Made by a program: the position numbers and the translations under genes
NCBI GenBank assembly: GCA_964566895.1
Contig: CAZMJP010000003.1
Coordinates: 1-43,206 of the forward strand
DNA: 43,206 nt
From: an uncultured Gammaproteobacteria bacterium
GTDB taxonomy: Bacteria; Patescibacteriota; Patescibacteriia; UBA2591; UBA6264
Direction of reading: 5' to 3'
Shown: positions 1,725-43,206 of the stretch, piece after piece
How positions within the stretch are numbered: position 1 is the first letter of the stretch
Layout of the letters: each line of letters begins with the position of its first letter
Notes under the pieces: model-generated
Databases searched by the model: none
The model's input: only the letters and a program-made list of their open reading frames with translations
Told to the model about the DNA's origin: nothing

Positions 1725-4700
1725 TTAGTAGGAATAATAATAATTATAATAATAAGGAGGAGAAATTTTCTCAAATGTTGTCGCCGAAGTTGTCTCAGAC
1801 CAATTAGAACAGCCTCCGCCATTACAGGCTCTAACACGATAATAATATTTTGTCTTAGGATATAATTTGGAAGTATCGTTATATAGTATAGTATCTCTAA
1901 CCGGGCTGGCTATTCCCTCCCAGTAATTTCTCTTTCTTTGTATTTCAAATTTTGTCTCATTATTGGAGTTGTCCGACCAAATTAAATCTATGCGATCGTA
2001 AGAAATTGCTGTGGCAAAAGCGTCAGACGGCGCGGCTGGCGGAAGCGGCTGTTCAATACAATAAAGACGATAATAATCAGAGCAAAAGGAATCACTTTTG
2101 TTAACTGCGCCTGAACTCAAATAAGAAGACCTGCCGTACTTGCCCTGTACTCCGCTGGCGGAGCTGGTCCATCCATTGCAATTATAATTTGGTACGTAGA
2201 CCCCGCTTGACTCAAATCCCGTCCAAACCATAAAATCATCAGGGCTAATCGTGTTATCCAGGTTAAAAGTAAACCAGGCCTTAGAATCAGTGGTATCAAT
2301 TAAGGTGGCGCCGTCGGCTCGATAATATTTTGTATAAGGCAGTAATATCGTTCCTATCCAATCTTGCCCATTTACTTGTCTTTGAAAAGTACCGATTAAC
2401 GCTCTCCATACTTTCCTCAAATCAGGATTATTGGCGTCGCTTTGGCACTTAGCGTCGGCTCCGCTCAATCCGCCTAAATTTCCGCTCCAAAAACTGCCAG
2501 TAACGAATATCCTTAAACCAGCTTCGATCTCGGCAACGCACTGATTACCTCTTTGATAAAACCCGGCATTGCAACCGGAAACAGCACAAACCCCCCAATC
2601 GCCCCAAGAGCCGTTGACTGAACAAGTTCTTACCCTTATCCCCGCTCCATTAGTTATTGAACACTCTTTAATCTCATTATCTCCGGGAGGACAAATAAAT
2701 GTTATTGTTGAACTTATCCGAGACCACTCAGAACAGCCAGTGACATTGCAAGATTTAAGTCGGTAGAAATATTCAATCCCGGAATTTAATCCTGTATCGC
2801 GGTAAGAAGTAATATTTTCCCCTACTCTAGCAACTTCACTCCAAGTAATCGTCCCGCCTCCGCCCGAAACAGCGGCAATATGGAAATCTTTGGAGGATTG
2901 CCCTGGAGATTCTTTAACGCCCCTTTCTATTATAAATTCTTCTTCAATATAAGAATTATCTATCCAGAAAATTTCCACTTGGTCGCCAGCCACAGCCGAA
3001 GCTTGAAGATTAGATGGGGACTGAATAATTCCCTTTCTAGGTAAATCCGGCAGCAATGGTTCGCCATCCCGACAATAGAAGAACATAAAATGGGTATCAA
3101 CGTCTTCATATTGCCAGGGGTTTTCACAAACAAAAACTTGAACTAGACCCTGGTTTGAATATTCTTTTCCAACGGTCCTCGGTTGGTTAATTCCATCAGT
3201 CGTTATTACGGCCGTTGCTTTAATTATTGACGAGCCGTTTTTATTTTGAGACTGGACTGAATTAATCTCCGAAGACTGGCTGTGACAGACGTTTTCAAGG
3301 CAATCCTGAGAAGCGCACTCATCGTCATTTTGGCAGCTCTCTCCGTCGTTTTTTCTGACTAATTTGGCTATCACCGAAACAGATGAATCCCACAACCATT
3401 CCCAATCATAAAGGCCAGCCAGTCCAATTATACTATTTCCATTTTTGTCCTGGCTCTCAGCCACGAAATCCGCCGTACTGTCTTTACGATAAAAAATGAC
3501 GGATTTCGGTGGGACAATGTCACTCGTTTCCGGATTAGATTCATTAGTCGCGGTTATTTTGACAGAGGACAACTGACAAACATCTTCCCCGGTAGTAAAA
3601 TTCCAATCAATGTCGCTCTCCGTGGGAATATTATATTTACTCTTAACTCCGTCTTCCCCCGCTTTTATTTTAACTCCATACTCCTGATTTTTCTCTAAGG
3701 CCTGCTTAGCCCATAATTCGACTCTCGTTTTATTCCCCTCATCAGGAGAGTCGCCTATTTCAATTTCCGTTATCTTTTCTAACCCCCTATATAATTCAAT
3801 TGTTTGATTATTAATGTTTTGGCTATCCATTTCTTGGTCAAAAACAGCGCTAATCAAGACATTACGGCAAACTTTGTCTTGTCCCCCGACCGGATTAACT
3901 TGAATCACTGTTGGTTTGGTTGCCACAATTAAATTTAAAAATCCGTTTGTTTGAGTATTGTCCGAAGAAGTGACTGTAGCCTGAATTTCTGTTTCACCCA
4001 AAGCCAAAGCTTTAGCCGCCACCTGGTCTGGTAAATCTATCTTGGGGACAATGACCGCAGCAAATTGGTTTGATGATTCCCAATCCCAAGTTATTCCGCC
4101 AACCAAAACCTGACAACTCGGCCCCATGGCCACAGCGTAGTAGTCTCGTGTTTTTGTCTCGGGATAAATTATTAAACCGACTTCCTCCCCTTTCGGCACA
4201 ACCTCATTGACCAGCACTCTTTCAGCCGAACAACTCCCTGCTTGTTCTCTGGTTTTAAAATACCATTGATAATCATCTATCGGAGAATCATCCCCTTGTC
4301 CATTTTTATTGCCGTCTAGTTGATAGCCATTTACATCTTTAATGCCCGTCTTCCCGCTTTTAAGAATCGCTTGATACCAATAATTCTGATCTAGAAGACT
4401 GTCGGGAGTAAATAAAAATCCGCGAGCTGTTATCGGTTTAGCCGGGTCAGTAGAAATCTCAATTAATGAAATCTTCCCTGAAATAACTACGCAGGACTCC
4501 GGATCAAAAATCTCATCCCCGGAGTTGCATTTTTCAATGATAATATTGGGGTGGTCCGACGAATCGTCTAAGTCAACCAAACTAATGGCGGCAATTTCTT
4601 TATCAAATCGGGCTGAAACACCGACGTTGGAACAAATATCTAAAGAACCGGGCCAAGGCGACGGACTTTGATAAGTTTCTAAACAAGTTTTATCTTCAAT

Positions 4701-7700
4701 CACCTGGGGCAATTTTATTAAATCCTCTGACTCGAGCAGAGAGGTGAAATACAAAGGATTGCTGACAACCCAATCCTGTTTGCAGGTTTGTCCCCAGTTG
4801 CCAAAACAATGACCGGCAAACAGAAATCCATCACAAGTCCGCTGGCAGCCGAGGGTAACCATTTTTTTCACAACTACATCTCCGCTAATTGTCTCCAAAG
4901 GCACAATAATATCATCAATTTCTCCATCGCTGTCCCAAGTTAAAGTTGTTGCTTCCTGATCTTTATTAAAAATGAGTTTTCTATCAGAGTCCCCTGCCCC
5001 GAGGTCAAATCTAATTCCCAAAATTGTCGCCGGAGAAAATCCTGGATATTCTTTTTCCGGGTTGATTGAACAAAGGGCCGGCGCCAGAGGATCCCGGTTA
5101 ACTTTCCAATTAAATAAATTGCTTAATACATTAGTTGCTGTTTTAAGATAGACCTGAATTTGATAATTGTCCCTGTCTTCGGGGACGGCCGGCAATTCTT
5201 CGGGAACCTCAACAATAACTTCAGTTTCGGTCCATTTTAAAGGGCAATAATCCGGTAAATCTCCGGCTAAATAATCAACAAGTCCGACCCTAAAATAAAC
5301 TTCGCCCGGTATTGAACCAAAATTTTTACCCCTGATTGTCACCCATGTTTTTTCCGCGCCCTTATCAGGACTAATACTAATAATAACCGGAGGTTTGTAA
5401 AACGAAACTAAATTGGAAGGTTTTAAAGGATTTCCAGTTTCAATCGGCGAGGGCACATAAACGGCTACTTCGGGTTTTGATTCTATCACCTCAGGCACAG
5501 TAATATTAATTTTGACATTAGACCAATTGTCTTCCTTTATTTCACTAATGGTTTGCGAGCCAAATCTAATATAACTATCTCCTTGAATATCTCCGAAATT
5601 CTCCCCAATAATGGAAACCGCTGTCCCTTTTTGGCCGTAATTTGGGCTAAGCTGACAAATGGCCGGATTAAAGGTATTATTAAGCCGAAAATCTAATTTA
5701 TTACTCTCCCCTTGAGACGGATCGATAATACTAACAGGATAATCGCTATACCCTAAAACCGGATCTACCCTCAATTTCTCGGGCACAATAGCCACAATTT
5801 CATTATTTGACCAGTTATCGCATCCTATTTCCGCCTGATAATCGCCGAATTTAACAAATTTGGATCCTGGGTAAGAACCAAAGTTCTGGCCACTAATGGT
5901 CACATAAGTGGGGATAAGGGGATCGTTCGTCCCTTGGTTCGGGCTAAGGTTAGTAATTATCGGCAAGTTGTATTCGCGAATAGTAAAGGGCACTCCATTG
6001 CTTGTGCCGACATCATTAATAACAACAACATTACCCGTTTGTGCTCCCGCGGGGACCAAGGCATCTTCTATTTTAGTTTCTGTCCAAGAACTATAATTGG
6101 CAACTTTCTCTGAATAAAATTTGACTTGATTGGACTCCGAACCGCTCCCCACAAATCTAATCCCTCTTAGATCTACCAACGTCTTCTTCGGAGAACCGAT
6201 ATTTGGGTTAAGAGAGAATAAACAAGGTCCGGTCGCCTCTCCATTACTATTAACAAAAAATTCCGCGGCTGAATTTGGCAAATCACTAGCCATCTCCCCC
6301 CCTGAACCACTATAAGTAATAGTCACCTGGGCTTGAGGTCGGTCTCCCTCTGAATAAGTTAAGGGGACCACGGTGGTGACATAATCTTTGGCATAACCAT
6401 TAATCTCCGCCTCAGTTGGATTTTCATTAAGAACGAACTCTAATTTAGACGGAAGAGCTGGTTGAAAAGACGTGCCGGTGAAACAAGATCCTTGAATGGT
6501 TATACATTCTCCCCTGCCTCCTTGTCCCGGCTCTAAAGAAGAAATCCAGGGAAGGCAAAGACAGTCTTCTAAACTTGAAGTAGTAAAATCCCAACTATGG
6601 CTTAACCTGGTTCCAATTCGGTCAATGATTAAATCAGTGCCGATGCTGATGCTATATTCAGCGTTATCCTGTAAATTATTTTCCGGGTTAAAGGAGAAAA
6701 CTCTAAAATCGTCGCTTTCTTCTCCCGGATCGACCACTCTAAAAACGCCTATTTTAGTTGATCCGTTCCAAATATCTATGACATATGGTCCGCCCATTAT
6801 AGCCGAAGGCCTCATTTTAATCTCAGGTGCGGGATTGAATCCAGGTCCGACAACAGTCATAGTCACCTCATAATTATACATAGAGGTATTAAAAACCAAA
6901 CTAATATCAGTATCAGAGCAAACGTCAACTCCTCTCGGGTTCCATGAACTAACTCCCGGAGCCCGATCATTAACCTGAAATTCCCATTCAACCGGACCGG
7001 CCATTTTATTCAGACAAAGGTCTTCAATATTCTCAATATGAACCCGATACCAAGTAAACGACTTTAGCAAATTATCGTCTTTCGGACTTAATCTAAAATC
7101 CTTATCCCCGTATATTACTTGCCAAAACTCGGGAGATAAAGTTTCAACTACTGCCCCATTCTCTCCGTCTAATTCCGCCAGCCAAACGTTTTCCGGAATC
7201 AAGTAGTCGCTTTCATTCATAATTGTAGTCGGATCAATTGGCTCGGAAAAACCAACCCTGATGCTCGGTTTGCGAGAAACATTTCTCTCCGGATAGTCTT
7301 CGTTTCCCGGATTAAAAATCGGACTGGTAGAAACAATTTCCGGCGGAACATTATCCACGGTTTCACCGGTGGTAAAATTCCAAACAAAATAGCTGGCTGT
7401 TTTTAAACAAGAGCCAGCTGCCTGACAATCTTGAAGCGTCCGGCCGCTTTTATCTAAAATTTGTTTGGGAAGATAAGCCGAATAAGAAGTGAAATTTTCG
7501 AAAAGTTCCGGATGTTTAAATATAACTACGTTATTTCTCGTCTGCCAGTTGCCGTCTAGTCTTTCGCTCAGGCAACTACCCCCGCCGGTTTGACATTCGG
7601 CTATTGTCACTCCTTCGCCGCCGGCCGGAGGATTGCATTTTTTCCCGTCAGCGGTTCCACCCAGGCAAACTTCGCTTTCAATTCTCAATTCATCGGCGTC

Positions 7701-8348
7701 GGCTAAATCTTGAATCTTATCGTTATTAACTCCTGAATTAAAAACCGGCTGGACGGCCGAACATAAATAAACGTCTCGGTGATAACTTTCCATTTCGCCG
7801 CCATGCGTGGTTTGAATTTTTGTAATCCTAAACTGATCAAACGAAGACGAACAGATAGTATCCGGGAGGCTACAGGTTTTATTTAGGCTACAACGCCAAC
7901 CTGGGGCGCAACATTGCCCGGCCGTGCATCCTCCCGGGCCCGGAGGAACCGGACCAACTATGCCGCCTAATTTGGAGATAATAAAACTAGCAATGGCGTA
8001 AGCGCTAACAACAATTAAAAGTCCGATTAAAGCATTAATAATAATTTTTTTTGCTTTATCTATCTTTTCAGGACTTCCGCCAGAAGTCATCCACATAAGC
8101 CCGCCGATAATAATAATAATAACGGCGATTAAGCCCAATAAACTTAGAATGATTCTGACAATTCTACCAATAATTTGCGGCAAACTCGCTTCTCCGTAGC
8201 CAGCCGTTGTCCTAAAATCCTCCAATAACCCGACGTCAAGCGTCTGCGCTTTGACTAAACTTAGATTGACAAAAAGACAAACAAATAGAGCAACAAAAAC
8301 AAAACCTAAAATGACAAAATAGATATTTTTTTTGTTTTTTGTAAACAT
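1725..8348 (-). CDS. Giant membrane-anchored multidomain surface protein (about 2207 aa from the ATG at 8348; the ORF track uses a TTG at 8363).
   Basis: The N-terminus has a signal/TM segment plus two TM helices resembling the TrbC/VirB2-type T4SS-pilin domain (..GGLMWMTSGGSPEKIDKAKKII..). It is followed by Cys-rich linkers and SbsA/Big-like Ig domains. At least 5 IPT/TIG repeats are present (e.g. IISISPDKGAEKTWVTIRGKNFG). The C-terminus has two FN3 domains (..IWSDNSNNETKFEIQRK..YYYRVRACN) flanking a DUF1554-like module (RIFVTGSFWSGNLGGLSGADAKCQ). Confidence 0.9.
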   Translation of the reverse strand: MFTKNKKNIYFVILGFVFVALFVCLFVNLSLVKAQTLDVGLLEDFRTTAGYGEASLPQIIGRIVRIILSLLGLIAVIIIIIGGLMWMTSGGSPEKIDKAKKIIINALIGLLIVVSAYAIASFIISKLGGIVGPVPPGPGGCTAGQCCAPGWRCSLNKTCSLPDTICSSSFDQFRITKIQTTHGGEMESYHRDVYLCSAVQPVFNSGVNNDKIQDLADADELRIESEVCLGGTADGKKCNPPAGGEGVTIAECQTGGGSCLSERLDGNWQTRNNVVIFKHPELFENFTSYSAYLPKQILDKSGRTLQDCQAAGSCLKTASYFVWNFTTGETVDNVPPEIVSTSPIFNPGNEDYPERNVSRKPSIRVGFSEPIDPTTIMNESDYLIPENVWLAELDGENGAVVETLSPEFWQVIYGDKDFRLSPKDDNLLKSFTWYRVHIENIEDLCLNKMAGPVEWEFQVNDRAPGVSSWNPRGVDVCSDTDISLVFNTSMYNYEVTMTVVGPGFNPAPEIKMRPSAIMGGPYVIDIWNGSTKIGVFRVVDPGEESDDFRVFSFNPENNLQDNAEYSISIGTDLIIDRIGTRLSHSWDFTTSSLEDCLCLPWISSLEPGQGGRGECITIQGSCFTGTSFQPALPSKLEFVLNENPTEAEINGYAKDYVTTVVPLTYSEGDRPQAQVTITYSGSGGEMASDLPNSAAEFFVNSNGEATGPCLFSLNPNIGSPKKTLVDLRGIRFVGSGSESNQVKFYSEKVANYSSWTETKIEDALVPAGAQTGNVVVINDVGTSNGVPFTIREYNLPIITNLSPNQGTNDPLIPTYVTISGQNFGSYPGSKFVKFGDYQAEIGCDNWSNNEIVAIVPEKLRVDPVLGYSDYPVSIIDPSQGESNKLDFRLNNTFNPAICQLSPNYGQKGTAVSIIGENFGDIQGDSYIRFGSQTISEIKEDNWSNVKINITVPEVIESKPEVAVYVPSPIETGNPLKPSNLVSFYKPPVIISISPDKGAEKTWVTIRGKNFGSIPGEVYFRVGLVDYLAGDLPDYCPLKWTETEVIVEVPEELPAVPEDRDNYQIQVYLKTATNVLSNLFNWKVNRDPLAPALCSINPEKEYPGFSPATILGIRFDLGAGDSDRKLIFNKDQEATTLTWDSDGEIDDIIVPLETISGDVVVKKMVTLGCQRTCDGFLFAGHCFGNWGQTCKQDWVVSNPLYFTSLLESEDLIKLPQVIEDKTCLETYQSPSPWPGSLDICSNVGVSARFDKEIAAISLVDLDDSSDHPNIIIEKCNSGDEIFDPESCVVISGKISLIEISTDPAKPITARGFLFTPDSLLDQNYWYQAILKSGKTGIKDVNGYQLDGNKNGQGDDSPIDDYQWYFKTREQAGSCSAERVLVNEVVPKGEEVGLIIYPETKTRDYYAVAMGPSCQVLVGGITWDWESSNQFAAVIVPKIDLPDQVAAKALALGETEIQATVTSSDNTQTNGFLNLIVATKPTVIQVNPVGGQDKVCRNVLISAVFDQEMDSQNINNQTIELYRGLEKITEIEIGDSPDEGNKTRVELWAKQALEKNQEYGVKIKAGEDGVKSKYNIPTESDIDWNFTTGEDVCQLSSVKITATNESNPETSDIVPPKSVIFYRKDSTADFVAESQDKNGNSIIGLAGLYDWEWLWDSSVSVIAKLVRKNDGESCQNDDECASQDCLENVCHSQSSEINSVQSQNKNGSSIIKATAVITTDGINQPRTVGKEYSNQGLVQVFVCENPWQYEDVDTHFMFFYCRDGEPLLPDLPRKGIIQSPSNLQASAVAGDQVEIFWIDNSYIEEEFIIERGVKESPGQSSKDFHIAAVSGGGGTITWSEVARVGENITSYRDTGLNSGIEYFYRLKSCNVTGCSEWSRISSTITFICPPGDNEIKECSITNGAGIRVRTCSVNGSWGDWGVCAVSGCNAGFYQRGNQCVAEIEAGLRIFVTGSFWSGNLGGLSGADAKCQSDANNPDLRKVWRALIGTFQRQVNGQDWIGTILLPYTKYYRADGATLIDTTDSKAWFTFNLDNTISPDDFMVWTGFESSGVYVPNYNCNGWTSSASGVQGKYGRSSYLSSGAVNKSDSFCSDYYRLYCIEQPLPPAAPSDAFATAISYDRIDLIWSDNSNNETKFEIQRKRNYWEGIASPVRDTILYNDTSKLYPKTKYYYRVRACNGGGCSNWSETTSATTFEKISPPYYYNYYYSY

Positions 8349-8359
8349 GGTTAAAATAT

Positions 8360-8815
8360 TCAATTGTTTAGCTCTTCTTGAACTATCTGATTGACTCGAT
8401 TTCCGTCCGCTCGTCCCTTAAGCCGACCCATCACCTGCCCCATAATTCGGCCTCTGTCTGGCGAACCCGATGTCTTGAGGTCTTTAATAACCTCAGAAAC
8501 TATTGTCCTTATTTTATCATCTGATAATTGTTCTGGCAAGTATTTTATCAACAACTCAAGTTCTTTTCTTTCCTTTTCTACTAAATCGGATCTTCCGCCC
8601 TTTTCGAACATTTCAACGGCTTCCCGGCGCTTTTTTACCTCTCTTTGAATCACCTCAACGGCTATCTCGTCGTTTAGCTCTTGTTTGCTGGGCCGCAATT
8701 CAATCTCTTTATTGTGAAGAGATGTTTTCAAAATACGCAAAACAGACAAAGATTCAACTCTTTTTTCCCGCAAAGCCTTTTTAAAATCTCTCTCTATTAT
8801 TTCCAAAATGCCCAT
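8360..8815 (-). CDS. yqeY: GatB/YqeY domain protein
   Basis: 151 aa with the typical YqeY pattern (..ALREKRVESLSVLRILKTSLHNKEIE.. ..MGRLKGRADGNRVNQIV..). It sits directly after rpsU, as in many bacteria. Confidence 0.8.
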   Translation of the reverse strand: MGILEIIERDFKKALREKRVESLSVLRILKTSLHNKEIELRPSKQELNDEIAVEVIQREVKKRREAVEMFEKGGRSDLVEKERKELELLIKYLPEQLSDDKIRTIVSEVIKDLKTSGSPDRGRIMGQVMGRLKGRADGNRVNQIVQEELNN

Positions 8816-10111: not shown

Positions 10112-10894
10112 TTACAACGATAAAAATTCCCTGGCTAATCTATGGTATGCTTTTGCTCCTTTTGAGTCGGGCGCGTATTCCAAAATCGTCTGACCGTAAC
10201 TCGGAGCTTCAGCTAACGATACATTTCTGGGAATCACGGTACGGAAAATCCGATGGGGAAAATGTTTATACAATTCATTCCAAACCTCTTCGGAAAGACG
10301 ACTGCGGGTGTCATACATTGTTAAAACCGCGCCTAAAATATCCAGACGAGGCTGCAAATTTTCTCTAACTAAACTAATGGTCTGTAAAAGTTGTCCCAAT
10401 CCTTCCAAAGCGTAGTATTCCGCTTGAACAGGGATCAAGGCGTAATCTGCGGCGACTAAACTGTTGACCGTGATCAAACCAAGAGAAGGTGGTGTATCAA
10501 TAAAAACAAAATCAAAATCTTCTTTTTTTTCTTTGCCCAAGTCGTAATTCAAAAGCGAACCAAGTTTTTTAGCTAAAATCGCCTCCCGACCTTCTAACCC
10601 AACCATTTCTACGTCGGCACCGGCCAGATTTTCATTGGAAGGAATAAGCCAAAAATCTTTCCGTGCGCCAATTAAACTTGAATGGGGAGAAATCTTCTCG
10701 CTTAAAACTTCGTAAATCCCCTGTTTTGTCTTTTCCACGCCCAATCCCGAGGTAGCGTTAGCTTGAGGGTCTAAATCAACTAAAAGCACTTTTTTGCCGA
10801 AATGAGCAAGATAAGCTCCCAAATTGACGGCGATATTCGTTTTTCCGGTTCCTCCTTTCCGGTTACAAATGGCGATAATCCGCGGACGATTCAT
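10112..10894 (-). CDS. parA: Chromosome partitioning ATPase ParA/Soj
   Basis: It has the deviant Walker A (NRKGGTGKTNIAVNL) and typical ParA motifs (DLDPQANAT, FIDTPPSLG). Confidence 0.93.
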   Translation of the reverse strand: MNRPRIIAICNRKGGTGKTNIAVNLGAYLAHFGKKVLLVDLDPQANATSGLGVEKTKQGIYEVLSEKISPHSSLIGARKDFWLIPSNENLAGADVEMVGLEGREAILAKKLGSLLNYDLGKEKKEDFDFVFIDTPPSLGLITVNSLVAADYALIPVQAEYYALEGLGQLLQTISLVRENLQPRLDILGAVLTMYDTRSRLSEEVWNELYKHFPHRIFRTVIPRNVSLAEAPSYGQTILEYAPDSKGAKAYHRLAREFLSL

Positions 10895-34854: not shown

Positions 34855-35595
34855 TTATGTTTCAAAAATGACTTTCATAAAGAGAATTAATACAATGCCG
34901 ATAATAAAAGAAATAAAATGGATTACATTTCTCTTTAAATCATGGTGGTCCTTTATTTCCGGAACCAAATCAGAGGCAGCGATGTAAATGAAATTGCCGG
35001 CGGCAAAAGAAAGCAAAAATGTAATATCAATCTCATGAGAAACGAAATAAACTAAAAGTCCTCCGGGAATAATGGCCAGGGCGGAAATGAAATTAACCAG
35101 TAAAGCCCTATATTTTCCCCAACCTCCATGAACCAAGATGCCAAAATCTCCTATTTCTTGAGGAATTTCATGGGCTAAACAAATCAACCAAGTGACTATT
35201 CCCACTTTTACGTCAACTAAAAAAGAACCGGCGATAATTAATCCGTCAATAAAATTGTGGATGCCGTCAGATAAAAGTATTAAATAGGTAACGGGTTTTT
35301 TATGCTCGGAAGGAACCCGATGACAGTGATGCCAGTGTAAAAATTGCTCCATTAAAAAGAAAATTGAAAATCCAACCAAAACCCAAACAAAAACATTTAA
35401 AGACGTTTTTTTCTCCAGGGCTTCGGGAATTAAGTGTAAAAAAGCGCCGCCAATTAACGAACCGGCGGAAAAAGCCACTAAAGGAAGAAGTAATTTTTTA
35501 AGAATTTCTTCTTTAAAAATCAAAGTAATTGCTCCTGTCCAGGCGGCCAAGCTTACGACAAAAGCGGAAATGATAATCCAAATTAGAATATTCAT
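34855..35595 (-). CDS. zupT: ZIP family divalent-metal transporter (ZupT-like)
   Basis: HNFIDGLIIAGSF and HEIPQEIGDFGIL are signature helices. The protein has about 8 TM segments. Confidence 0.88.
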   Translation of the reverse strand: MNILIWIIISAFVVSLAAWTGAITLIFKEEILKKLLLPLVAFSAGSLIGGAFLHLIPEALEKKTSLNVFVWVLVGFSIFFLMEQFLHWHHCHRVPSEHKKPVTYLILLSDGIHNFIDGLIIAGSFLVDVKVGIVTWLICLAHEIPQEIGDFGILVHGGWGKYRALLVNFISALAIIPGGLLVYFVSHEIDITFLLSFAAGNFIYIAASDLVPEIKDHHDLKRNVIHFISFIIGIVLILFMKVIFET

Positions 35596-35901: not shown

Positions 35902-36501
35902 TTATTTATAAAATAATCCGCAAAAACAATGGCCGTCTTTTTCAATTTCTTCTTTGTGCCATTGGCAAGGACAAATTTTAGGTCTGTCTTCTTCTAAACC
36001 GCCGCTTACTCTTCGACAAGGACAATATCTGGCTCCGTATTTCTTTTCGTTCTCCAATAGTCCCTTAATTAATCTTTCTACGGCTTCCCTGTCAGGATTT
36101 AATTTAAACCCGTTTTTTTCAGCGTAATCTTGATAATTTTTTATCAACTCTACCATCTCGGCTGGGATTTCCGTCTTTAAACCGCCGCTCAGCGCTTCAT
36201 CTAAAAACTCTTTTATCACTGGTTCGGCTCTTACTCCGATGAATTCGCTGACCGGCTTTCCCTCTTTAAACAAAATAACGGTGGGAATTCTCTCAATCCC
36301 GTATTGTCGAGAGACTTGAGGAGCGACATCTAAATTGACCTTGGCAAGAGTAAATTTATCATTATATTCTTCAGCTACCTTTTCCAAAATCGGGCCCAAG
36401 ACAAAACAAGGCGCGCACCATTCCGCCCAAAAGTCAACCAAAACTGGTTTTTGGCTATTTTGAATAGTCTCCTCAAAATTTTGGTCAGTTAGTTCCAACA
36501 T
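35902..36501 (-). CDS. Thioredoxin fused to a ferredoxin:thioredoxin reductase catalytic-subunit-like domain
   Basis: The N-terminus is a Trx fold with a WCAPC active site. The C-terminus has ..YGARYCPCRRV..KICPCQWHKEEIEKDGHCFCGLF, the CPC..CPC..C-x-C cluster pattern of FTR catalytic chains. Confidence 0.8.
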   Translation of the reverse strand: MLELTDQNFEETIQNSQKPVLVDFWAEWCAPCFVLGPILEKVAEEYNDKFTLAKVNLDVAPQVSRQYGIERIPTVILFKEGKPVSEFIGVRAEPVIKEFLDEALSGGLKTEIPAEMVELIKNYQDYAEKNGFKLNPDREAVERLIKGLLENEKKYGARYCPCRRVSGGLEEDRPKICPCQWHKEEIEKDGHCFCGLFYK

Positions 36502-36510
36502 AACTTTAGT

Positions 36511-36539
36511 ATAATACCTTCTTCCTTATTTTAACCCAA
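36511..36539 (-). promoter_or_regulatory. Promoter for the Trx-FTR gene, implying a (near-)leaderless mRNA
   Basis: On the minus strand it reads TTGGGT-17 nt-TATTAT. The -10 box ends 9 nt before the ATG, and there is no SD sequence. Confidence 0.45.
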
Positions 36540-36633
36540 CCTAACTCATTTTCTTTAGGCTTTCCGTCAATAAATTCTTGCAAAGAGCGCCATTTTCTGG
36601 GGACAGTCCCCTTTTCAGTCCTTGTCACGTTTT

Positions 36634-36653
36634 GGGAATTTAGTTCCCAAACT
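36634..36653. repeat. Left copy of a 20-bp direct repeat flanking the Bro-N gene (GGGAATTTAGTTCCCAAACT)
   Basis: It matches 37533-37552 at 17 of 20 positions. It contains an internal inverted repeat, GGGAA..TTCCC. Confidence 0.8.
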
Positions 36654-36677
36654 CTACTAATAAAAACTTGGATATCC

Positions 36678-37499
36678 TTATTTCAATTTCTTTCGGTTTT
36701 CTGGTTTCTTTAGATAATTTTCTCTTGAAACAATTGAACGCCTTAGCCGTTTTTCTAAATTTTTTCTTGCGCCGCCGGCAATATCTCCGCCAGTTTTGGC
36801 ATCCGATCTTAATTTGGGCATGCCTTGTGAATCTTCATTGCGATGAATTTCAGTAGTAGCTCTTTCTCCTAACATAGTAAATATCAATTCCAGGTCATTC
36901 ATATGGTCGCGCAAATTTTCTCTTTTCAATCTCTTTAATTTCTTATATTCCAACGGTGTTATCCCAAAAGTAGCCTTTGAAATTTCCGCGGTTAAAATTT
37001 CATAATCCCTTTGCTCCTTTGCGCCTCTTTTTTGCCACTCATCCGTCAATTCTTCACGAATGGTAATTCCGCGCATTCTTTTTTCAATCCAATTATCAGA
37101 ATAACCTTTGAGTTTATAAAGAATTCTGGTTCGTTTAGTTGCTAATTCTGGATTTTCAATTTCCTGCACCCTCTCATAGCCAACCTTTGCCAACCAACGT
37201 TTAAATGGCTCAGCTTTGGGAGAAGGAATTGATTGAATTATGCGAAAAATACCCTCTGTATTAGCGCAAAGCATTTTTTGTTTTCCCCCTTCTGTCAACA
37301 CTTCAAGGGTATGTACAATTTGTACCCACCCTTTAGATAGCTCTGTATCCCGCTGTTTCATGCGCTGAATATACTGTTTAGGATCATTTGAATCAATCAA
37401 CGCCAAAACTACATCTTCTACCACAAACCACCATTCATTTTGGTAAATAATTTTTCTAATTTTTCTGCCTTTAAATAAGGCTATTTTTGTAGTTTGCAT
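36678..37499 (-). CDS. Bro-N domain protein with a DinD-like C-terminal region
   Basis: The N-terminus (..IRKIIYQNEWWFVVEDVVLALI.. ..GGKQKMLCANTEGIFRIIQSIPSPKAEPFKRWLAKV) fits the BRO-N pattern. The C-terminus (..RDHMNDLELIFTMLGERATTEI..) resembles DNA-damage-inducible protein D. Confidence 0.75.
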   Translation of the reverse strand: MQTTKIALFKGRKIRKIIYQNEWWFVVEDVVLALIDSNDPKQYIQRMKQRDTELSKGWVQIVHTLEVLTEGGKQKMLCANTEGIFRIIQSIPSPKAEPFKRWLAKVGYERVQEIENPELATKRTRILYKLKGYSDNWIEKRMRGITIREELTDEWQKRGAKEQRDYEILTAEISKATFGITPLEYKKLKRLKRENLRDHMNDLELIFTMLGERATTEIHRNEDSQGMPKLRSDAKTGGDIAGGARKNLEKRLRRSIVSRENYLKKPENRKKLK

Positions 37500-37532
37500 A
37501 TTTTTTACCTCATAAAAATTTTAAAAATATTT

Positions 37533-37552
37533 AGGAACTAAGTTCCCAAACT
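37533..37552. repeat. Right copy of the 20-bp direct repeat (AGGAACTAAGTTCCCAAACT)
   Basis: See 36634-36653. Its internal inverted repeat is GGAAC..GTTCC. Confidence 0.8.
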
Positions 37553-37606
37553 ATTTATTTGCAGGGGCCGACCCTGTCACATTCTGTCAATTCCGCCGCC
37601 GAATTT

Positions 37607-37629
37607 CGTGCCCCGCTTTGCGGGGCACG
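37607..37629 (-). terminator. GC-rich hairpin just after res (possible terminator or processing site)
   Basis: CGTGCCCCGC-TTT-GCGGGGCACG forms a 10-bp stem that starts 11 nt past the res stop codon. There is no clear U-tract on the minus strand. Confidence 0.4.
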
Positions 37630-37639
37630 CCGCAAATTT

Positions 37640-40243
37640 TTAACCAAGGATTTTACTTTCTAACGCTTCTTCAAATTCTCTCTTCAACTGTTCATTATAA
37701 AATGGCAATCCGATTAACTTAAAGTTCGTATTTTCTAATTTAAAATCTGTATCCGCTTTAGTTTCCAATTCCAGCAAAAACTTTTGCTTCCAACCCTCTT
37801 TAGAATCTTCAAACTTACCCTTTCTATCTTTAAATTGATTTCCTTTTGGTTCAATGAAAATTTGATAAATACTTACGACATGATTTCTTCTTTTCAAGAG
37901 CATAATAAAGTCCGGCTCAAAAACCCCTCCGTCTTCAAAGCCGAAAACCTGAAAAAATTTTTCGTTGCGCAATAAAGCGATATCTGAATATTTTTGTCTT
38001 AATTTTTCTATAAACCCGTCAATAAAACTGATGAAGTTTTGCTCTTCGTCGGTACCATAAAATTCTGTCTGTGCGTACCAATCTCTATCTGCCAAATTAA
38101 CATCTTCCAATTTTTTACTATCTACTTCATCCTTATCGATCTTAATTTTCTTGTCGTAAAAAACTTCTTTCAGCATTTTCGCCTTAAACAAATTAGTTCC
38201 CACAAAATCCGCTGTTTTCGTTCTTGCCTGTTCAGATATGGTTTTAATAACAAACAAAGCCGATTCGATTTTTTCTTGCGCCGTCAATCCATTAACTTTT
38301 CCTTTCGGTCCGGAAATCTCAATATCAATTCCGCCTAAGTATTCCAGCGATGTTATAAATTCACGTACCGATTTTATGTGTGGAAAATATTTTTTGAGAT
38401 TATCAAATTTAAAGAATTCAATTTTATCCAAAGCTCCTCTTAATATATTCTCTCCGAAATCAGAAAATTTAAATGTTTTCCTTACCGTTCCGTTTGTTTT
38501 GTTTTTTCCGCTGGCTTCGCCTTCGTCTAGAATGGCGATTTCCGTTAATTCCCCGGTTTTTAATCGCCATTTATAATTTGTCTCAATTTTGGCATTTGCC
38601 AAACTAAATATCTCTTCTCGCTGATTTTCCACCCGATCATTTATAAACACTACGCCCTTTTTCCAAAATTCGGTCTTTTTGAATTCCGGCTTGATGAACA
38701 AACTCACCTGAACGTGCTTTTCCGGTATAATTCCGAGTTCTGTTAGCGTACTCTTAATTTCCTCAATATATTTCGGATTGTGGGCACTATGATAATGCAG
38801 CGTTTCCACAATCCGAAGTTCGTTTTCAACGTCTTCGTCAAATTTTCTTTTGTATTTATCTTCTGCATCGTTCAGCCGAAAAGGAAAATATCGCGCTCCT
38901 CGACCAATAAGCTGGGCTTCGCCCATTGTGGTATTGCCGGGCTTATATTTTCCGCGAACCCAGCTGCCGTCTCGTGTATCATACAACCGGACAATATCAA
39001 ATAAGTTCAGCACGTCCCAGCCCTCATTTAACATATTCACGGCAAAAATCGCTCTTATTTCATTATTTTTATCTTCCAAGGAATTTAACTTTAATTGTCT
39101 TTCCTCATCAATGTTTTCAGAGTCCAAAAGCATGCATTTTTCTTCCGCAAAATCTTCTCGTAATTCTTGAATAAGATTTTCAAAACTTATGCCGGATTTC
39201 GCCAAATAAGCAAAAACTTTCTCGAGGGTTGTTCCTTTAGCTCTCGCGGCTATCGTTTCAAAATCGCGAGCTGATATGTTCTTTATCTTTTCCAAAAACG
39301 CGGAGTAATTTTCTCCCGACTCTTTAATTGTTTTTGATTTAAAAAGCAAAACCGGCTTTAGATGTAATTTATGCTTTTCCGCGATTTTGCGACGATATTG
39401 ACTTAAAACCGCTGCTTGCAGAGCGCGGTCCACCGGCTCCAAATCCGCTTCCAAAACTTCAATTTCCTTTGAATATTTATCTAGCCGGAAATGCTTTAAA
39501 TCATACTGATAAATAATTTTGTCTTCGTATTTTTTGCGGATATCTTCGTTGCCTAAATCTATCGTGGCGGTAAATTCCAGCAAAATATTTTTCGGATTTT
39601 TCCCGAAAATCTTTTTCAAAACCGTGTATTCCCAAGTCTTTTCCAATTCTTCCTCTTTTTTATTCTTTGTTATTGCTTGTACATGATGGGCTTCGTCTGA
39701 TATAAGAACAATATCTTTTCCTTCAAATTCTTCTTCGGTTAAAGCATTTTCTTTTGGATTGTTTATGCGGATATGCAAAAGTGATGTAGTAGCAAAAAGA
39801 ATGTTTATATCTTCCGTACTTGCCGCTTCAAAATTATTAACTTCTTTTACAAAAACTTCTTTTTCTCCAAATTTGATTTTGGGCGCGAATAAATATTTTT
39901 CCGAAAGCGGATTTAAAAAATTGTCTTTTGTTTTTTCAATAATGTTTGTGCTATTTACGAAAAAAATGAAATTCCGGTAGCCCTGCTTATAAAGTTGTAA
40001 AATGTTAGCGGCCATAATAAGAGTTTTGCCGCTACCGGTTGCCATATGAAAAAGCATCTGCGCCGGAAATTTTCTTTGTTGATAACCGCCAAAATAAAAA
40101 TCAAAGCGCCCAATCGCTTCCTTTTGGTATTCTCGCAACTCAAATTTTGGATTCAAATTTTGGACTACTTCGCCATCAAGCCGAGAAGTAAAAAAATCCT
40201 GTCCGAACGATTCTTTGTTGGCGTTAAAGGTTTTGTAAAGCAT
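37640..40243 (-). CDS. res: Type III restriction endonuclease Res subunit (SF2 helicase plus C-terminal PD-(D/E)xK nuclease)
   Basis: Motif I is MATGSGKTLIMA and motif II is LISDEAHHV. The C-terminal nuclease motif is ..FEPDFIMLL..IFIEPKG. The 867-aa length is typical of Res. Confidence 0.88.
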   Translation of the reverse strand: MLYKTFNANKESFGQDFFTSRLDGEVVQNLNPKFELREYQKEAIGRFDFYFGGYQQRKFPAQMLFHMATGSGKTLIMAANILQLYKQGYRNFIFFVNSTNIIEKTKDNFLNPLSEKYLFAPKIKFGEKEVFVKEVNNFEAASTEDINILFATTSLLHIRINNPKENALTEEEFEGKDIVLISDEAHHVQAITKNKKEEELEKTWEYTVLKKIFGKNPKNILLEFTATIDLGNEDIRKKYEDKIIYQYDLKHFRLDKYSKEIEVLEADLEPVDRALQAAVLSQYRRKIAEKHKLHLKPVLLFKSKTIKESGENYSAFLEKIKNISARDFETIAARAKGTTLEKVFAYLAKSGISFENLIQELREDFAEEKCMLLDSENIDEERQLKLNSLEDKNNEIRAIFAVNMLNEGWDVLNLFDIVRLYDTRDGSWVRGKYKPGNTTMGEAQLIGRGARYFPFRLNDAEDKYKRKFDEDVENELRIVETLHYHSAHNPKYIEEIKSTLTELGIIPEKHVQVSLFIKPEFKKTEFWKKGVVFINDRVENQREEIFSLANAKIETNYKWRLKTGELTEIAILDEGEASGKNKTNGTVRKTFKFSDFGENILRGALDKIEFFKFDNLKKYFPHIKSVREFITSLEYLGGIDIEISGPKGKVNGLTAQEKIESALFVIKTISEQARTKTADFVGTNLFKAKMLKEVFYDKKIKIDKDEVDSKKLEDVNLADRDWYAQTEFYGTDEEQNFISFIDGFIEKLRQKYSDIALLRNEKFFQVFGFEDGGVFEPDFIMLLKRRNHVVSIYQIFIEPKGNQFKDRKGKFEDSKEGWKQKFLLELETKADTDFKLENTNFKLIGLPFYNEQLKREFEEALESKILG

Positions 40244-40244
40244 A

Positions 40245-41000
40245 TCAGGTAATTTGCCTGTTTATCTCCGCTCCCAGCGCGCGTTGAAAATCGCGTATGA
40301 TTGCTTGTTGGTCGGCTGGTAGAAAGGCGCTGAGTTCGCCACGGAAATCGATAACTCTTGCATCTGCAATAATCATATCTTTTATTTCTTTCAACCGTTT
40401 TTTATGCTCGCCGGAGAGCATATTTTTGCGCATTATAAAGTATAAGTCATAAAAATCGCGCGGTTTTTTACGCTCTAAAAGCGCACCGAAGATTTTTTCT
40501 TCTACTAATTCGTTCTGCGGCAAATGTAAAAGGGTGTACGTCGGTACAAAATCGTTCGCCACACTATCCACCTCTTCCACTATTTTTCTGCCGTCTCTCG
40601 ACGAAATGTTTATCTCCATCCCGACAGGTTGAAAGTCTAAAATCGTAAAAGTTGCAACGCCGAAATAGCCACCGCTTGTCTGGTTGGATTTTTCACCAAC
40701 TTCCACTTTTATTCCCGTCCATTCAATTTCCGCGAGCACGCGCAGAAATAAATCTTCAACAAACTTTTTAATTTCACGATCATCAACTTTAAACGCCGAA
40801 AAATCAAGATCTTCAGAAAAACGCGGGCTGCCATAAATAATGCGCAACGCCGTGCCGCCCTTGAAAAGTAAATTATTAGCTGCGGGAAGTTTGTAAAGTT
40901 CGCTCAAAAACACGTGCTGAAAATACTCCCGCACGATATTGGGGAATATGCCGGTTTGATACCGTGTTGCCAATTTTTGCAATGTTTCTTTAGCAATCAT
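40245..41000 (-). CDS. abiEii: AbiEii/AbiGii-family nucleotidyltransferase toxin (type IV TA; DUF1814)
   Basis: LFKGGTALRIIYGSPRFSEDLDFS is the family's catalytic signature. The 4-nt ATGA overlap with the upstream antitoxin gene is typical. Confidence 0.88.
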   Translation of the reverse strand: MIAKETLQKLATRYQTGIFPNIVREYFQHVFLSELYKLPAANNLLFKGGTALRIIYGSPRFSEDLDFSAFKVDDREIKKFVEDLFLRVLAEIEWTGIKVEVGEKSNQTSGGYFGVATFTILDFQPVGMEINISSRDGRKIVEEVDSVANDFVPTYTLLHLPQNELVEEKIFGALLERKKPRDFYDLYFIMRKNMLSGEHKKRLKEIKDMIIADARVIDFRGELSAFLPADQQAIIRDFQRALGAEINRQIT

Positions 41001-41596
41001 TTGAGCGTAGTTTTTATGATGCTTGTTAATTTTTCATTGTGGAAAAGTGAAACGTAGCGTCCTGCTTTCGCTGGATTGATTTTTTCTTTATCAAACCGCG
41101 AAATTGGCTTAAGTCCGTCAAGGAGACGGAAATAATTGGTATCCACAAACGCCTTTTCGGCATCGGCAATTCTGAAACTTAAATTATCCTGTCGCGCCGT
41201 TTCATAACCGGTGAATGCCGCCTTTTTTATTTTTCGATACGAAAAAATTTTGCCGAGCTTTTCAAATCGCCGCGTGGCTTTGGGCGTCACGGAAGTTATT
41301 TCATATACCGTCTCCGGTATGACGCGGTGATACGAAAGCGCGAATTCACGGGAAACATATGACGGTTCGTAAAGTTTATTGGCTAAGAATAATTCCGACG
41401 GCTCAGTATCGGCTAAAGCGTAAAGACCGCGCTTAAGTCGGAGTATAAAATGTTGTTGCGCGTAGCGGTGAAGCAATTTTGAAACTGCCGTTTCCGAAAG
41501 CCCGAAAAGCGCCCGAACATCGCGCGCGGTAAAAACAGGGAGTTTTTTCTCCTTTATTCTAGCGGCGAATTTTGTCTGGTTCACTAATTTGACCAT
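40997..41596 (-). CDS. abiEi: AbiEi-family antitoxin/transcriptional regulator
   Basis: The N-terminal wHTH (..FTARDVRALFGLSETAVSKLLHRYAQQHFILRLKRGLYAL) is AbiEi_4-like. It is paired with abiEii. Confidence 0.85.
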   Translation of the reverse strand: MVKLVNQTKFAARIKEKKLPVFTARDVRALFGLSETAVSKLLHRYAQQHFILRLKRGLYALADTEPSELFLANKLYEPSYVSREFALSYHRVIPETVYEITSVTPKATRRFEKLGKIFSYRKIKKAAFTGYETARQDNLSFRIADAEKAFVDTNYFRLLDGLKPISRFDKEKINPAKAGRYVSLFHNEKLTSIIKTTLK

Positions 41597-41635
41597 ATTG
41601 TCATTTTACCGAATTAAAGTTAGGGTGTCAAATCT

Positions 41636-43206
41636 TCAGCCATAAAACGCCTTGTTCAGCGCCTTCTCTTCTTTGCTTATTCTATATTCCTCATCGTCAA
41701 TCTCGCTGTAATTGATGTAGAGATGGTTTTTGTTCAGCGCTTCAAGCAAGAATCTCTTTTGGTTTTCAAGCGATAAATCGGCAAAATCTTTAGCGACTTT
41801 ATCAAACACGGCGATATCAACTTTGTAGCTCAAGCGCGCTTTTTCTTTCATTGTCTCCCATAATTTCTGCAATTCTGCGGCGGTTTTTGCTTTCTTTACT
41901 TGCTCAACAAAATTTTCATTCCATTTCGCTAGCTCCATATATAGAAAATCGGTCTCAATTTTTTCATTTTTCAAAAATTTATAAATTCGCTCATTACAAT
42001 CTTTTACATGCTCACTGAGTTGCTCAATTAGGATAAATTTTCTATTTCCGCCATCTTCCTTGTTTAGTTCCAGTGTTGCATGCCCGGTTGTGCCCGAGCC
42101 AGCAAAAAAATCTAAAACTATATCATTCTTTTTCGTCATGATTTTTAATACATCAACTACCGTATAAAGAGATTTCGGGAAACTTACCCGTAATTTTCTC
42201 CCTAATAATTTCTCAACTAATCTTGTCCCGTAGAATGTGGCGTTATATTTTTTATCAAACCAATGCGTAATTAACATCTGCTGCTCTCTATACTTCTTAT
42301 AAATTTGAATGTTTTCGTTTTCGTCTTTTGCGGCAATATATTCTTCGCCACTATCCTCACTTGTTAAATTTTTCGCAAAAGTATCTTTCTTTAGTTGCCA
42401 GGCTTTTTCTTTCCCATTAACTACGGGTAAAACTTTTACATAATTTCTTTTTTGCTCCAAAGTAATTTCTTCCAAATCCGGACTTACGAAAATTGGATAG
42501 AAATAATTTTCTTTTTCGTTTCTTAGCTTCTCTTCGATATTGGCCAACCTTATGAAGTTTTCTAACCTGTATTTTCCTTGCTCGTCTTCAAGATTAAATG
42601 TTTGCTTCTTCTCGATATTGATTGCTACTTTATTAAAATTCGCATGTTCTTTGTTTTTGGCATAAACCAACATGAAATCAATCGTTACCGAAAAAAACTT
42701 AGTAAACTGCCTTCCTCGAGGATTCGTCAAAACGCAAACGACGCCCAATCGGTTATCTCTGCCAAATATCTCATCCGCTATTTCACCCAGATAGAATAAT
42801 TCATTATGGTCTATGGCAATAGCAATAAATCCGTCTTCCGCTAAAAGGCTCCTTGCGATTTCGAGGCGATTTTTTATAAATGTCAACCATGTAGAATGAT
42901 TGAACGCGTTGTTGTATGTAAATGTTTCCAAACTTCCGCCAGTATTATACGGTGGATCAATGTAAATCAGTTTTACTCTTCCGGCGAAGCGTTTTTTGAG
43001 AGAATGGAGAGCTAAAAGATTGTTACCTTTAATAATGAGATTGTCTTTAATGTCGCCATTCTCATCGATTTTAAACTTATCAAATTCATACTCACCAGTT
43101 TTATCAATTCTTTTTGCGTTGGTAAAAACCTTCGAGTCTAAAAGCCGGCTAATTTCATCCGGCGCTAAGGTTTCGTTCCAAAAAATCTCATCGCGCTTTT
43201 GGTCTT
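41636..43206 (-). CDS. mod: Type III R-M DNA methyltransferase Mod subunit; the 5' end lies beyond the window
   Basis: The frame is open from 43204 with no stop, and the track's 'M' at 42931 is a TTG inside the gene. Motif IV, IDPPYNTG, lies at about 42940-42963 and motif I, DFFAGSGTTGHA, lies downstream. This is the beta-class order typical of Mod. Confidence 0.88.
   Translation of the reverse strand, partial: DQKRDEIFWNETLAPDEISRLLDSKVFTNAKRIDKTGEYEFDKFKIDENGDIKDNLIIKGNNLLALHSLKKRFAGRVKLIYIDPPYNTGGSLETFTYNNAFNHSTWLTFIKNRLEIARSLLAEDGFIAIAIDHNELFYLGEIADEIFGRDNRLGVVCVLTNPRGRQFTKFFSVTIDFMLVYAKNKEHANFNKVAINIEKKQTFNLEDEQGKYRLENFIRLANIEEKLRNEKENYFYPIFVSPDLEEITLEQKRNYVKVLPVVNGKEKAWQLKKDTFAKNLTSEDSGEEYIAAKDENENIQIYKKYREQQMLITHWFDKKYNATFYGTRLVEKLLGRKLRVSFPKSLYTVVDVLKIMTKKNDIVLDFFAGSGTTGHATLELNKEDGGNRKFILIEQLSEHVKDCNERIYKFLKNEKIETDFLYMELAKWNENFVEQVKKAKTAAELQKLWETMKEKARLSYKVDIAVFDKVAKDFADLSLENQKRFLLEALNKNHLYINYSEIDDEEYRISKEEKALNKAFYG

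Follow-up and report, generated by a model that had tools for sequence, protein, structure and literature searches.

A type III restriction-modification operon carrying an abiE toxin-antitoxin cassette between mod and res on a patescibacterial contig

Why should an abortive-infection gene pair lie between the two genes that make up a restriction-modification (R-M) operon of type III? The question is raised by contig CAZMJP010000003.1 of assembly GCA_964566895.1, from an uncultured bacterium of patescibacterial lineage, whose first 43,206 nucleotides (nt) are referred to here as the window. Near the end of the window, abiEi and abiEii, the antitoxin and toxin genes of an AbiE system, are nested between the methyltransferase gene mod and the restriction gene res, all on one strand. 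A preliminary description of this DNA proposed that the four genes form an integrated two-layer defence module. From the comparisons presented below, we consider it likely that the locus is a horizontally mobile type III R-M operon, with a Res of the HI_1054-like family, in which the junction between the mod stop and the res start acts as a cargo slot, and that the slot is occupied here by a complete, autonomous abiE cassette.

Re-measurement of the four co-directional minus-strand open reading frames (ORFs) gave exactly the spacings reported in the preliminary description (Table 1). The mod TGA (41638–41636) is followed after 39 nt by the abiEi ATG at 41596, abiEi and abiEii overlap by the ATGA at 41000–40997, and abiEii meets res in the sequence TGA-T-ATG, where a single nucleotide (40244) parts the abiEii stop (40247–40245) from the res start at 40243. 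The order and orientation of mod and res are kept, with the 1,390 nt from the mod stop to the res ATG filled by the abiE cassette and its own promoter.

Table 1. Coordinates of the genes and sequence features of the mod–abiEi–abiEii–res locus in the window.
Feature	Position	Strand	Basis or remark
mod, type III DNA methyltransferase	41636..43206	-	no stop in the 522 codons up to the window end
abiEi, winged helix-turn-helix (wHTH) antitoxin and putative autorepressor, 199 amino acids (aa)	40997..41596	-	Pfam and PADLOC
abiEii, DUF1814 nucleotidyltransferase toxin, 251 aa	40245..41000	-	Pfam, PADLOC and motifs
res, type III restriction subunit, 867 aa	37640..40243	-	superfamily 2 (SF2) ATPase and C-terminal PD-ExK nuclease
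P_abiE, sigma-70-like promoter	41603..41631	-	promoter scan, conservation among cassette copies
Inverted repeat over the abiEi start, candidate AbiEi operator	41589..41604	-	arm covariation
Block 100% identical to contig L005, 2,016 nt	39851..41866	-	zero mismatches; read as a recombination tract
Terminator-like hairpins 3′ of the res stop, operon end	37529..37636	-	folding

Profile searches with Pfam and PADLOC supported the identities assigned to all four products. The 3′ 522 codons of mod lie inside the window and the N-terminus (about 125 aa) beyond its end; the DPPY (IYIDPPYNTG) and FxGxG (DFFAGSGTTG) motifs are visible in the translation, which matches Pfam N6_N4_Mtase (8e-35) and PADLOC MTase_III (2.4e-107, profile positions 166–700 of 708). 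A full-length Mod of 645 aa is encoded on near-identical contigs (99.7–99.8% DNA identity) and is seen in three of the inspected contigs that carry an identical AbiEii. Res matches Pfam ResIII (6.5e-29) and PADLOC REase_III (2.4e-130 over residues 30–865). Its Walker A motif (ATGSGKT), the DEAHH sequence and the C-terminal nuclease motif EPDF...EPK are invariant in 17 homologues, as is the N-terminal M1-L2-Y3, which supports the chosen start codon. Canonical type III systems (EcoP1I, EcoP15I; Haemophilus influenzae HI_1054–1056) likewise have an N6_N4 Mod encoded upstream of a Res that combines an SF2 ATPase with a PD-ExK nuclease. For AbiEi, the matches were to Pfam AbiEi_4 (2.6e-06; 27.9 bits against a cut-off of 25) and PADLOC AbiEi (1.6e-39 over residues 9–198), and no solved structure was matched by its sequence. 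AbiEii matches the profiles of that name in Pfam (2.1e-25) and PADLOC (3.2e-27), and its motifs GGTALR...SEDLDF and RDFYDL align to the DUF1814 structures 4o8s and 4ok0 and to AbiGII (9hlo). The pair resembles the AbiE type IV toxin-antitoxin systems of Streptococcus agalactiae and Lactococcus lactis (Dy et al., 2014; PMC3985639) in its overlapping bicistron with the antitoxin gene first, its wHTH antitoxin, its DUF1814 nucleotidyltransferase toxin with conserved motifs and a promoter that overlaps inverted repeats.

Does the cassette depend on mod for its expression? The preliminary description saw no promoter between the genes, and on this point it has to be corrected: the 39-nt spacer between mod and abiEi harbours the site that we call P_abiE, which is the top-scoring sigma-70-like site of the 6.8-kb region 36400–43206. 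It consists of TTGACA (41631–41626), a 17-nt spacer and TAAAAT (41608–41603), with 11 of 12 matches. With 6 nt between the end of the −10 box and the abiEi ATG, a leaderless or near-leaderless abiEi mRNA is predicted. Within this AbiE subfamily, 48 distinct upstream regions share the consensus TTGAC-N17/18-TAaatT-gaCAAT-ATG, and they have nothing in common 5′ of the −35 box. When embedded and stand-alone copies are compared, homology of the cassette starts exactly at the −35 box and stops exactly at the abiEii stop codon. Since similarity begins at the −35 box and the promoter is conserved in 48 copies, the cassette brings its own promoter with it. The sequence data show that the abiE cassette, from −35 box to abiEii stop, was inserted precisely at the point where mod ends and res begins.

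A leaderless abiEi would fit a genome poor in Shine–Dalgarno cores. Such a core precedes only five of the 29 window ORFs of at least 120 aa, and the sequence suggests that leaderless or short-leader mRNAs may be widespread in this organism. TATAAT-like boxes lie within about 12 nt of several start codons, for example upstream of 34855–35595 and 10112–10894.

Comparison of 46 cassette copies uncovered an inverted repeat of the form 5-N6-5, which in the window reads ATGAC-N6-GTCAA (41604–41589) and straddles the abiEi start codon. Its arms covary among the copies, being TTGAC/GTCAA in 20, TTAGC/GCTAA in six and TTGGC/GCCAA in one. Mismatches between the arms numbered 24, compared with 53 ± 4.9 in 5000 shuffles, none of which was as low; the contrast is inflated by the relatedness of the sequences. 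A generic inverted-repeat search around the promoter, at seed 6, found nothing. The repeat is a plausible AbiEi operator by analogy with S. agalactiae, whose AbiEi is bound at inverted repeats spanning the −35, −10 and +1 positions (PMC3985639). The system described here differs from that one in having, across the start codon, a short repeat of 5-N6-5 form in place of the 23-3-23 arrangement, in the predicted leaderless abiEi, in belonging to a CPR-specific subfamily (CPR denoting candidate-phyla bacteria) with 62–83% identity among relatives, and in the absence of a terminator after abiEii, which res directly abuts.

To place the position of the cassette in context, we turn to other members of the Res family. 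Res relatives of 45–93% identity were collected from 80 species-representative genomes, and the mod end and res start could be placed in 69 of the loci. A canonical mod–res junction was found in 25 of these. At the cargo-free junctions inspected (L028, L045, L046 and L094), the mod stop lies 1–2 nt from the res ATG (TAA-A-ATG, TAA-TT-ATG or TAA-T-ATG), in contrast to the 1,390-nt gap in the window. The remaining 44 loci (64%) carry cargo of 340–3,300 nt between mod and res, and the cargo sits exactly at the ancestral junction of mod stop and res ATG. Of 70 cargo ORFs, 69 are co-directional, and the cargo forms about 50 unrelated clusters, many of them without any Pfam or PADLOC match. They include RhuM/PDC-S05, PDC-S23, Fic/DOC, AAA_15/21 and Old/AriA-like ATPases, AAA_13, AIPR, Shedu SduA, SLFN/AlbA_2, NYN, Bro-N, DUF6530, MntA-HepT, AbiJ/Abi_C and PD-Lambda-5. 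Among 42 distinct junctions with an exact Res N-terminus, 31 have the preceding stop at −4 to +5 nt from the res ATG, whether the upstream ORF is mod or cargo; in the window, that ORF is the toxin gene abiEii. Judged from these junctions, the juxtaposition of a stop codon to the res start is a conserved feature of the family that is preserved when cargo is inserted.

The occupant of the slot changes even among close relatives of Res. At 97% identity the same abiE arrangement is present. At 94% the order is mod, PD-Lambda-5 A, PD-Lambda-5 B, a 254-aa gene of unknown type and then res, and at 90% an HTH (helix-turn-helix) gene, mod, an AbiJ-like Abi_C gene, the 254-aa gene and res. Members of this 251–254-aa family end 2 nt before the res ATG in several loci with the closest Res relatives (L006 4368–5132, L011 3367–4131, L014 3868–4632 and L021 2796–3551), either alone or together with AbiJ-like or PD-Lambda-5 cargo. 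The protein was considered as a divergent AbiEii; it has no Pfam or PADLOC match. The family is a candidate for a new embedded defence gene or a type III accessory subunit. In a marine metagenome-assembled genome (L091 339–990), the slot holds MntA (NTP_transf_2) with the HepT toxin, a second toxin-antitoxin family that is unrelated to AbiE. AbiE itself was found in the slot in none of the 80 species-level loci, which were searched by tblastn with the AbiE pair and with a hidden Markov model (HMM) of 120 AbiEii homologues; for divergent AbiEii subfamilies the check consisted of a Pfam summary covering 25 of 36 families, so that a rare match could be missed.

We then asked where relatives of the abiE cassette reside. 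The AbiEii subfamily is very abundant, and its taxon-labelled relatives are all from CPR bacteria; by this measure the cassette is of a type common in Patescibacteria. Relatives of the window's proteins, together with its gene content, point to a CPR/Patescibacteria origin of the DNA. The closest relatives in two genomes (81% and 77% identical) are stand-alone abiEi–abiEii pairs among housekeeping genes. In 80 metagenome loci with AbiEii relatives of 62–100% identity, the abiEi–abiEii pair was found throughout, and a downstream Res was sought by tblastn. Only two of the loci, both with a 100% identical AbiEii, have Res downstream, and in the other 78 this search detected no Res of this family. 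The proposal of an integrated two-layer defence module thus lacks comparative support, given these 78 loci and a slot that elsewhere holds about 50 unrelated families. In one of the 78, on a contig shared by loci L071 and L164, a 62–66% identical abiE cassette (L071 1773–3121) is located upstream of a type III mod, at a distance of about 1.7 kb. The mod–res slot of that operon is occupied by a 422-aa ORF and a homologue of the PD-Lambda-5 B methylase, so that abiE is adjacent to the operon and not embedded in it.

The R-M genes have a different distribution. Res proteins of this family occur in Parcubacteria, Omnitrophota, Nitrospirota, Actinomycetota and further phyla at 74–97% identity, and such similarity across phyla implies a horizontally mobile module. 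Base composition agrees: G+C is 0.36 in mod and res, 0.42–0.44 in abiE and 0.40 in the window as a whole, a pattern that fits an incoming R-M module which would have acquired a CPR-native cassette. The idea that abiE is foreign by G+C was rejected, as its value is nearer the window mean than that of mod and res; if anything, the R-M genes appear to be the more foreign part.

How the combination has spread can be judged from its own lineage. An identical AbiEii occurs on 13 contigs, and the ten inspected, each from a different sample, all have the order mod–abiEi–abiEii–res. The arrangement is therefore no dead one-off, as its genes are intact and the contigs, from at least ten samples, carry three Mod specificity regions. 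Recurrence of the gene order, which the preliminary description had proposed to look for across lineages, thus extends over at least ten samples and is confined to the window's own lineage. One of the contigs, L005, is especially informative. It shares with the window the 2,016-nt identical block listed in Table 1, which covers the 231 terminal nt of mod, the spacer, both abiE genes and the 393 nt with which res begins. Beyond the block, the flanking res sequence shows 148 mismatches over 2,602 nt, or 94.3% identity, and on the mod side there are 18 mismatches in 84 nt, after which mod is unalignable further upstream. At a flank divergence of 5.7%, 2 kb without a mismatch is not due to chance. 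Homology between the window and L005 ends at the end of res, and the module must therefore lie in different genomic contexts.

The Mods of the window, L005 and a further contig, L096, have an identical or near-identical C-terminal stretch, whereas their central target-recognition regions are unrelated. Res aligns with its counterparts in L005 and L096 over the full length and uninterrupted, with residue differences from the window of 3% and 1%, respectively. The identical block within diverged flanks indicates that the cassette probably spread by homologous recombination. In the simplest reading of these sequences, a single capture of the cassette would have been followed by homologous recombination via the mod-3′ and res-5′ arms, by shuffling of mod specificity upstream of a fixed abiE–res unit, or by both. 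Two further contigs (L180 and L181, about 1772–1803) have res variants with a 30-nt in-frame insertion, at about position 40094 of the window, next to the same abiE cassette.

What does the insertion imply for the expression of res? Neither junction folds into a stable RNA hairpin (folding z of +0.24 and +1.34), which upholds the earlier statement that no terminator separates abiE from res. Directly 3′ of the res stop lies a GC-rich hairpin of −25 kcal/mol (z −2.4), and further 3′ a 10-bp hairpin with a T-run (37551–37529). From the hairpin-free junctions and the hairpins after res, it is predicted that res is present on transcripts from both the mod promoter and P_abiE. The coupling of res to abiEii that was suggested earlier is accordingly plausible at the levels of both transcription and translation; the accompanying picture of abiE as a simple passenger of the mod transcript is not, given its own conserved promoter. 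The missing Shine–Dalgarno sequence before res and abiEii was also considered as an argument for coupling and was rejected in view of the rarity of such cores in the window.

Taken together, these features suggest a scheme in which res would be transcribed by read-through from the mod promoter and also from the AbiEi-repressible P_abiE, and would be translated by termination–reinitiation from abiEii, in replacement of an ancestral coupling to mod. AbiEi would repress P_abiE, may impede read-through from mod and, as the preliminary description proposed, could gate the dosage of res. The two systems would act independently of each other: Mod and Res would restrict unmethylated DNA, and the AbiEii toxin, held in check by AbiEi, would give rise to abortive infection, addiction or both. 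Their co-location would then reflect selection for compact, co-transferred and co-expressed defence genes and not a dedicated partnership. We favour independence because AbiE has its own antitoxin and promoter, because its relatives mostly lack this Res downstream and because the slot accepts unrelated cargo. In accordance with this, the sequence comparisons gave no sign of mutual dependence between AbiE and the restriction enzyme.

An alternative is that AbiE is functionally tied to the type III enzyme, for which it would act as guard or backup, such that failed or inhibited restriction frees the toxin in the style of PrrC and EcoprrI, with AbiEi in addition setting the Res:Mod ratio through P_abiE and through a roadblock on the mod transcript. 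In favour of such wiring, res follows the toxin gene after a single nucleotide and no terminator intervenes, and polymerase arriving from mod has to pass the candidate operator. The embedded order in all ten inspected contigs with the exact cassette, from ten samples, points the same way, and PrrC provides a precedent for an embedded toxin that is guarded by its R-M host (PMC12707154). On the other side, AbiE has its own antitoxin and promoter, and 78 out of 80 close relatives are without this Res downstream. The roughly 50 unrelated cargo families in the slot of related operons mark the position as generic, AbiE is absent from the slot of all 80 Res relatives from other species, and no fusion or interaction surface links AbiE to Mod or Res. 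We therefore regard a wired guard as unlikely.

It is also conceivable that abiE is a selfish addiction module, which stabilizes itself and incidentally the R-M genes, is carried by homologous recombination from one related type III locus to another and has no net anti-phage role in its host. The 2,016-nt identical tract inside diverged flanks and the precise promoter-to-stop boundaries of a cassette with copies in many unrelated contexts are consistent with such behaviour, and AbiE-type pairs are able to stabilize mobile elements (PMC3985639). Against this, AbiE systems are experimentally validated abortive-infection defences (PMC3985639) and the cargo of the slot is dominated by defence families; moreover, roles in addiction and defence are compatible. 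Pure selfishness seems to us quite improbable.

Phasevarion-type loci often have an inactive type III res, and one might suppose on this ground that the insertion broke the operon, leaving a decaying system with an orphan or regulatory Mod and a silenced res, but this is highly improbable in view of the full-length 867-aa res ORF with its invariant ATPase and nuclease motifs, the preserved stop–ATG junction, the uninterrupted full-length alignment of Res in the diverged L005 (3%) and L096 (1%) and the full-length Mod in sister contigs.

Several points weigh against the reading we prefer, namely that of an autonomous cassette in a cargo slot. Co-transcription, reinitiation and functional independence are all things that we infer from sequence. 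The absence of a Shine–Dalgarno core before res, with cores in 5 of 29 window genes, is uninformative on coupling. The embedded order is known from a single lineage only, so that selection for this specific combination is not demonstrable; conversely, the exact cassette is embedded in every contig inspected (10 of 10), which leaves room for functional integration specific to this lineage. Finally, the tally of 78 loci out of 80 with no downstream Res was obtained with the sequence of one Res family as the query, which a very divergent Res could escape.

Nested defence genes have been described in other hosts. Payne et al. (2024; bioRxiv 10.1101/2024.01.29.577857) reported defence genes nested inside Hma, BREX and DISARM systems and inside type I R-M, with 96.7% co-oriented, and proposed a role in co-regulation; the guilt-by-embedding approach is reviewed in PMC13223576. 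The classic functional example is PrrC in the type Ic EcoprrI locus (PMC12707154). As in that class, a complete and co-oriented defence module is nested here in a host system, and the nested content is hypervariable and consists mostly of known or candidate defence families. The present case differs from those surveyed, none of which was a type III system: its host operon has two genes, and the slot is exactly the junction of mod stop and res ATG, where the stop–start juxtaposition to res is usually kept. It differs from PrrC–EcoprrI in that no functional link between toxin and host is indicated and AbiE has its own antitoxin.

Type III systems have also been considered from this angle. According to the part of the survey by Makarova, Anantharaman, Aravind and Koonin (2012; PMC3506569) drawn on here, toxin-like genes of the HEPN, Sir2, ParB or REase-fold type are part of many R-M systems of types I and III, and AIPR proteins are linked to type III R-M. 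AIPR, HEPN (Abi_C, HepT) and similar cargo likewise occupies the slot in the related loci described above. AbiE (COG5340–COG2253) is not among the type III families named in that part of the survey, which also gives no junction anatomy, cassette boundaries or recombination tracts. The preliminary description had been unaware of any characterization of such wiring in type III systems. The general principle was in fact already available (PMC3506569, in the part used here; bioRxiv 10.1101/2024.01.29.577857), while our literature search turned up neither a survey of embedding in type III systems nor an AbiE pair between mod and res, the general statement in that part of PMC3506569 being all that was found.

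The locus is thus a type III example of the known phenomenon of defence embedding. It adds one more case of defence systems nested in R-M operons, and an automated annotator would call both systems easily; the family-wide statistics of the slot and the rule at the junction are modest extensions of existing knowledge. A useful by-product is the survey itself, in which about two-thirds of the loci in a widespread, cross-phylum type III family carry hypervariable cargo at the mod/res junction. Type III operons may accordingly provide a further anchor for the discovery of defence genes by embedding, and a testable question arises as to whether embedded promoters and translation of the upstream ORF control the dosage of Res. 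Tentatively, and with less than even confidence, we extend the argument to type III operons in general: the junction of mod stop and res start may be a slot serviced by recombination, with translation of res deliberately chained to whatever occupies it and with embedded repressible promoters tuning Res relative to Mod. If this broader view is true, guilt-by-embedding extends to type III systems, new defence candidates become available and a layer of res control has gone unrecognized.

Of the neighbouring genes, the one directly downstream of res (36678–37499, minus strand) codes for a Bro-N protein of 273 aa with a match to PDC-S13, a PADLOC candidate (2.6e-106), and it is parted from res by the terminator-like hairpins. 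With this neighbour, and with Bro-N and RhuM occurring as slot cargo in other loci, the locus can be viewed as a small defence islet. Terminator-like sites are in general frequent in 36400–43206 (18, compared with 6.9 ± 2.9 in shuffles), most of them being weak stems of 5–7 bp in coding sequence on both strands. Elsewhere in the window, a 2,212-aa ORF (1725–8363, minus strand) carries a T4SS-pilin domain at its N-terminus and, after it, TIG, Big_5, DUF1554 and fn3 domains; such giant surface proteins are typical of CPR bacteria. In a single 199-aa ORF at 35902–36501 (minus strand), a thioredoxin domain is joined with the catalytic beta chain of ferredoxin-thioredoxin reductase.

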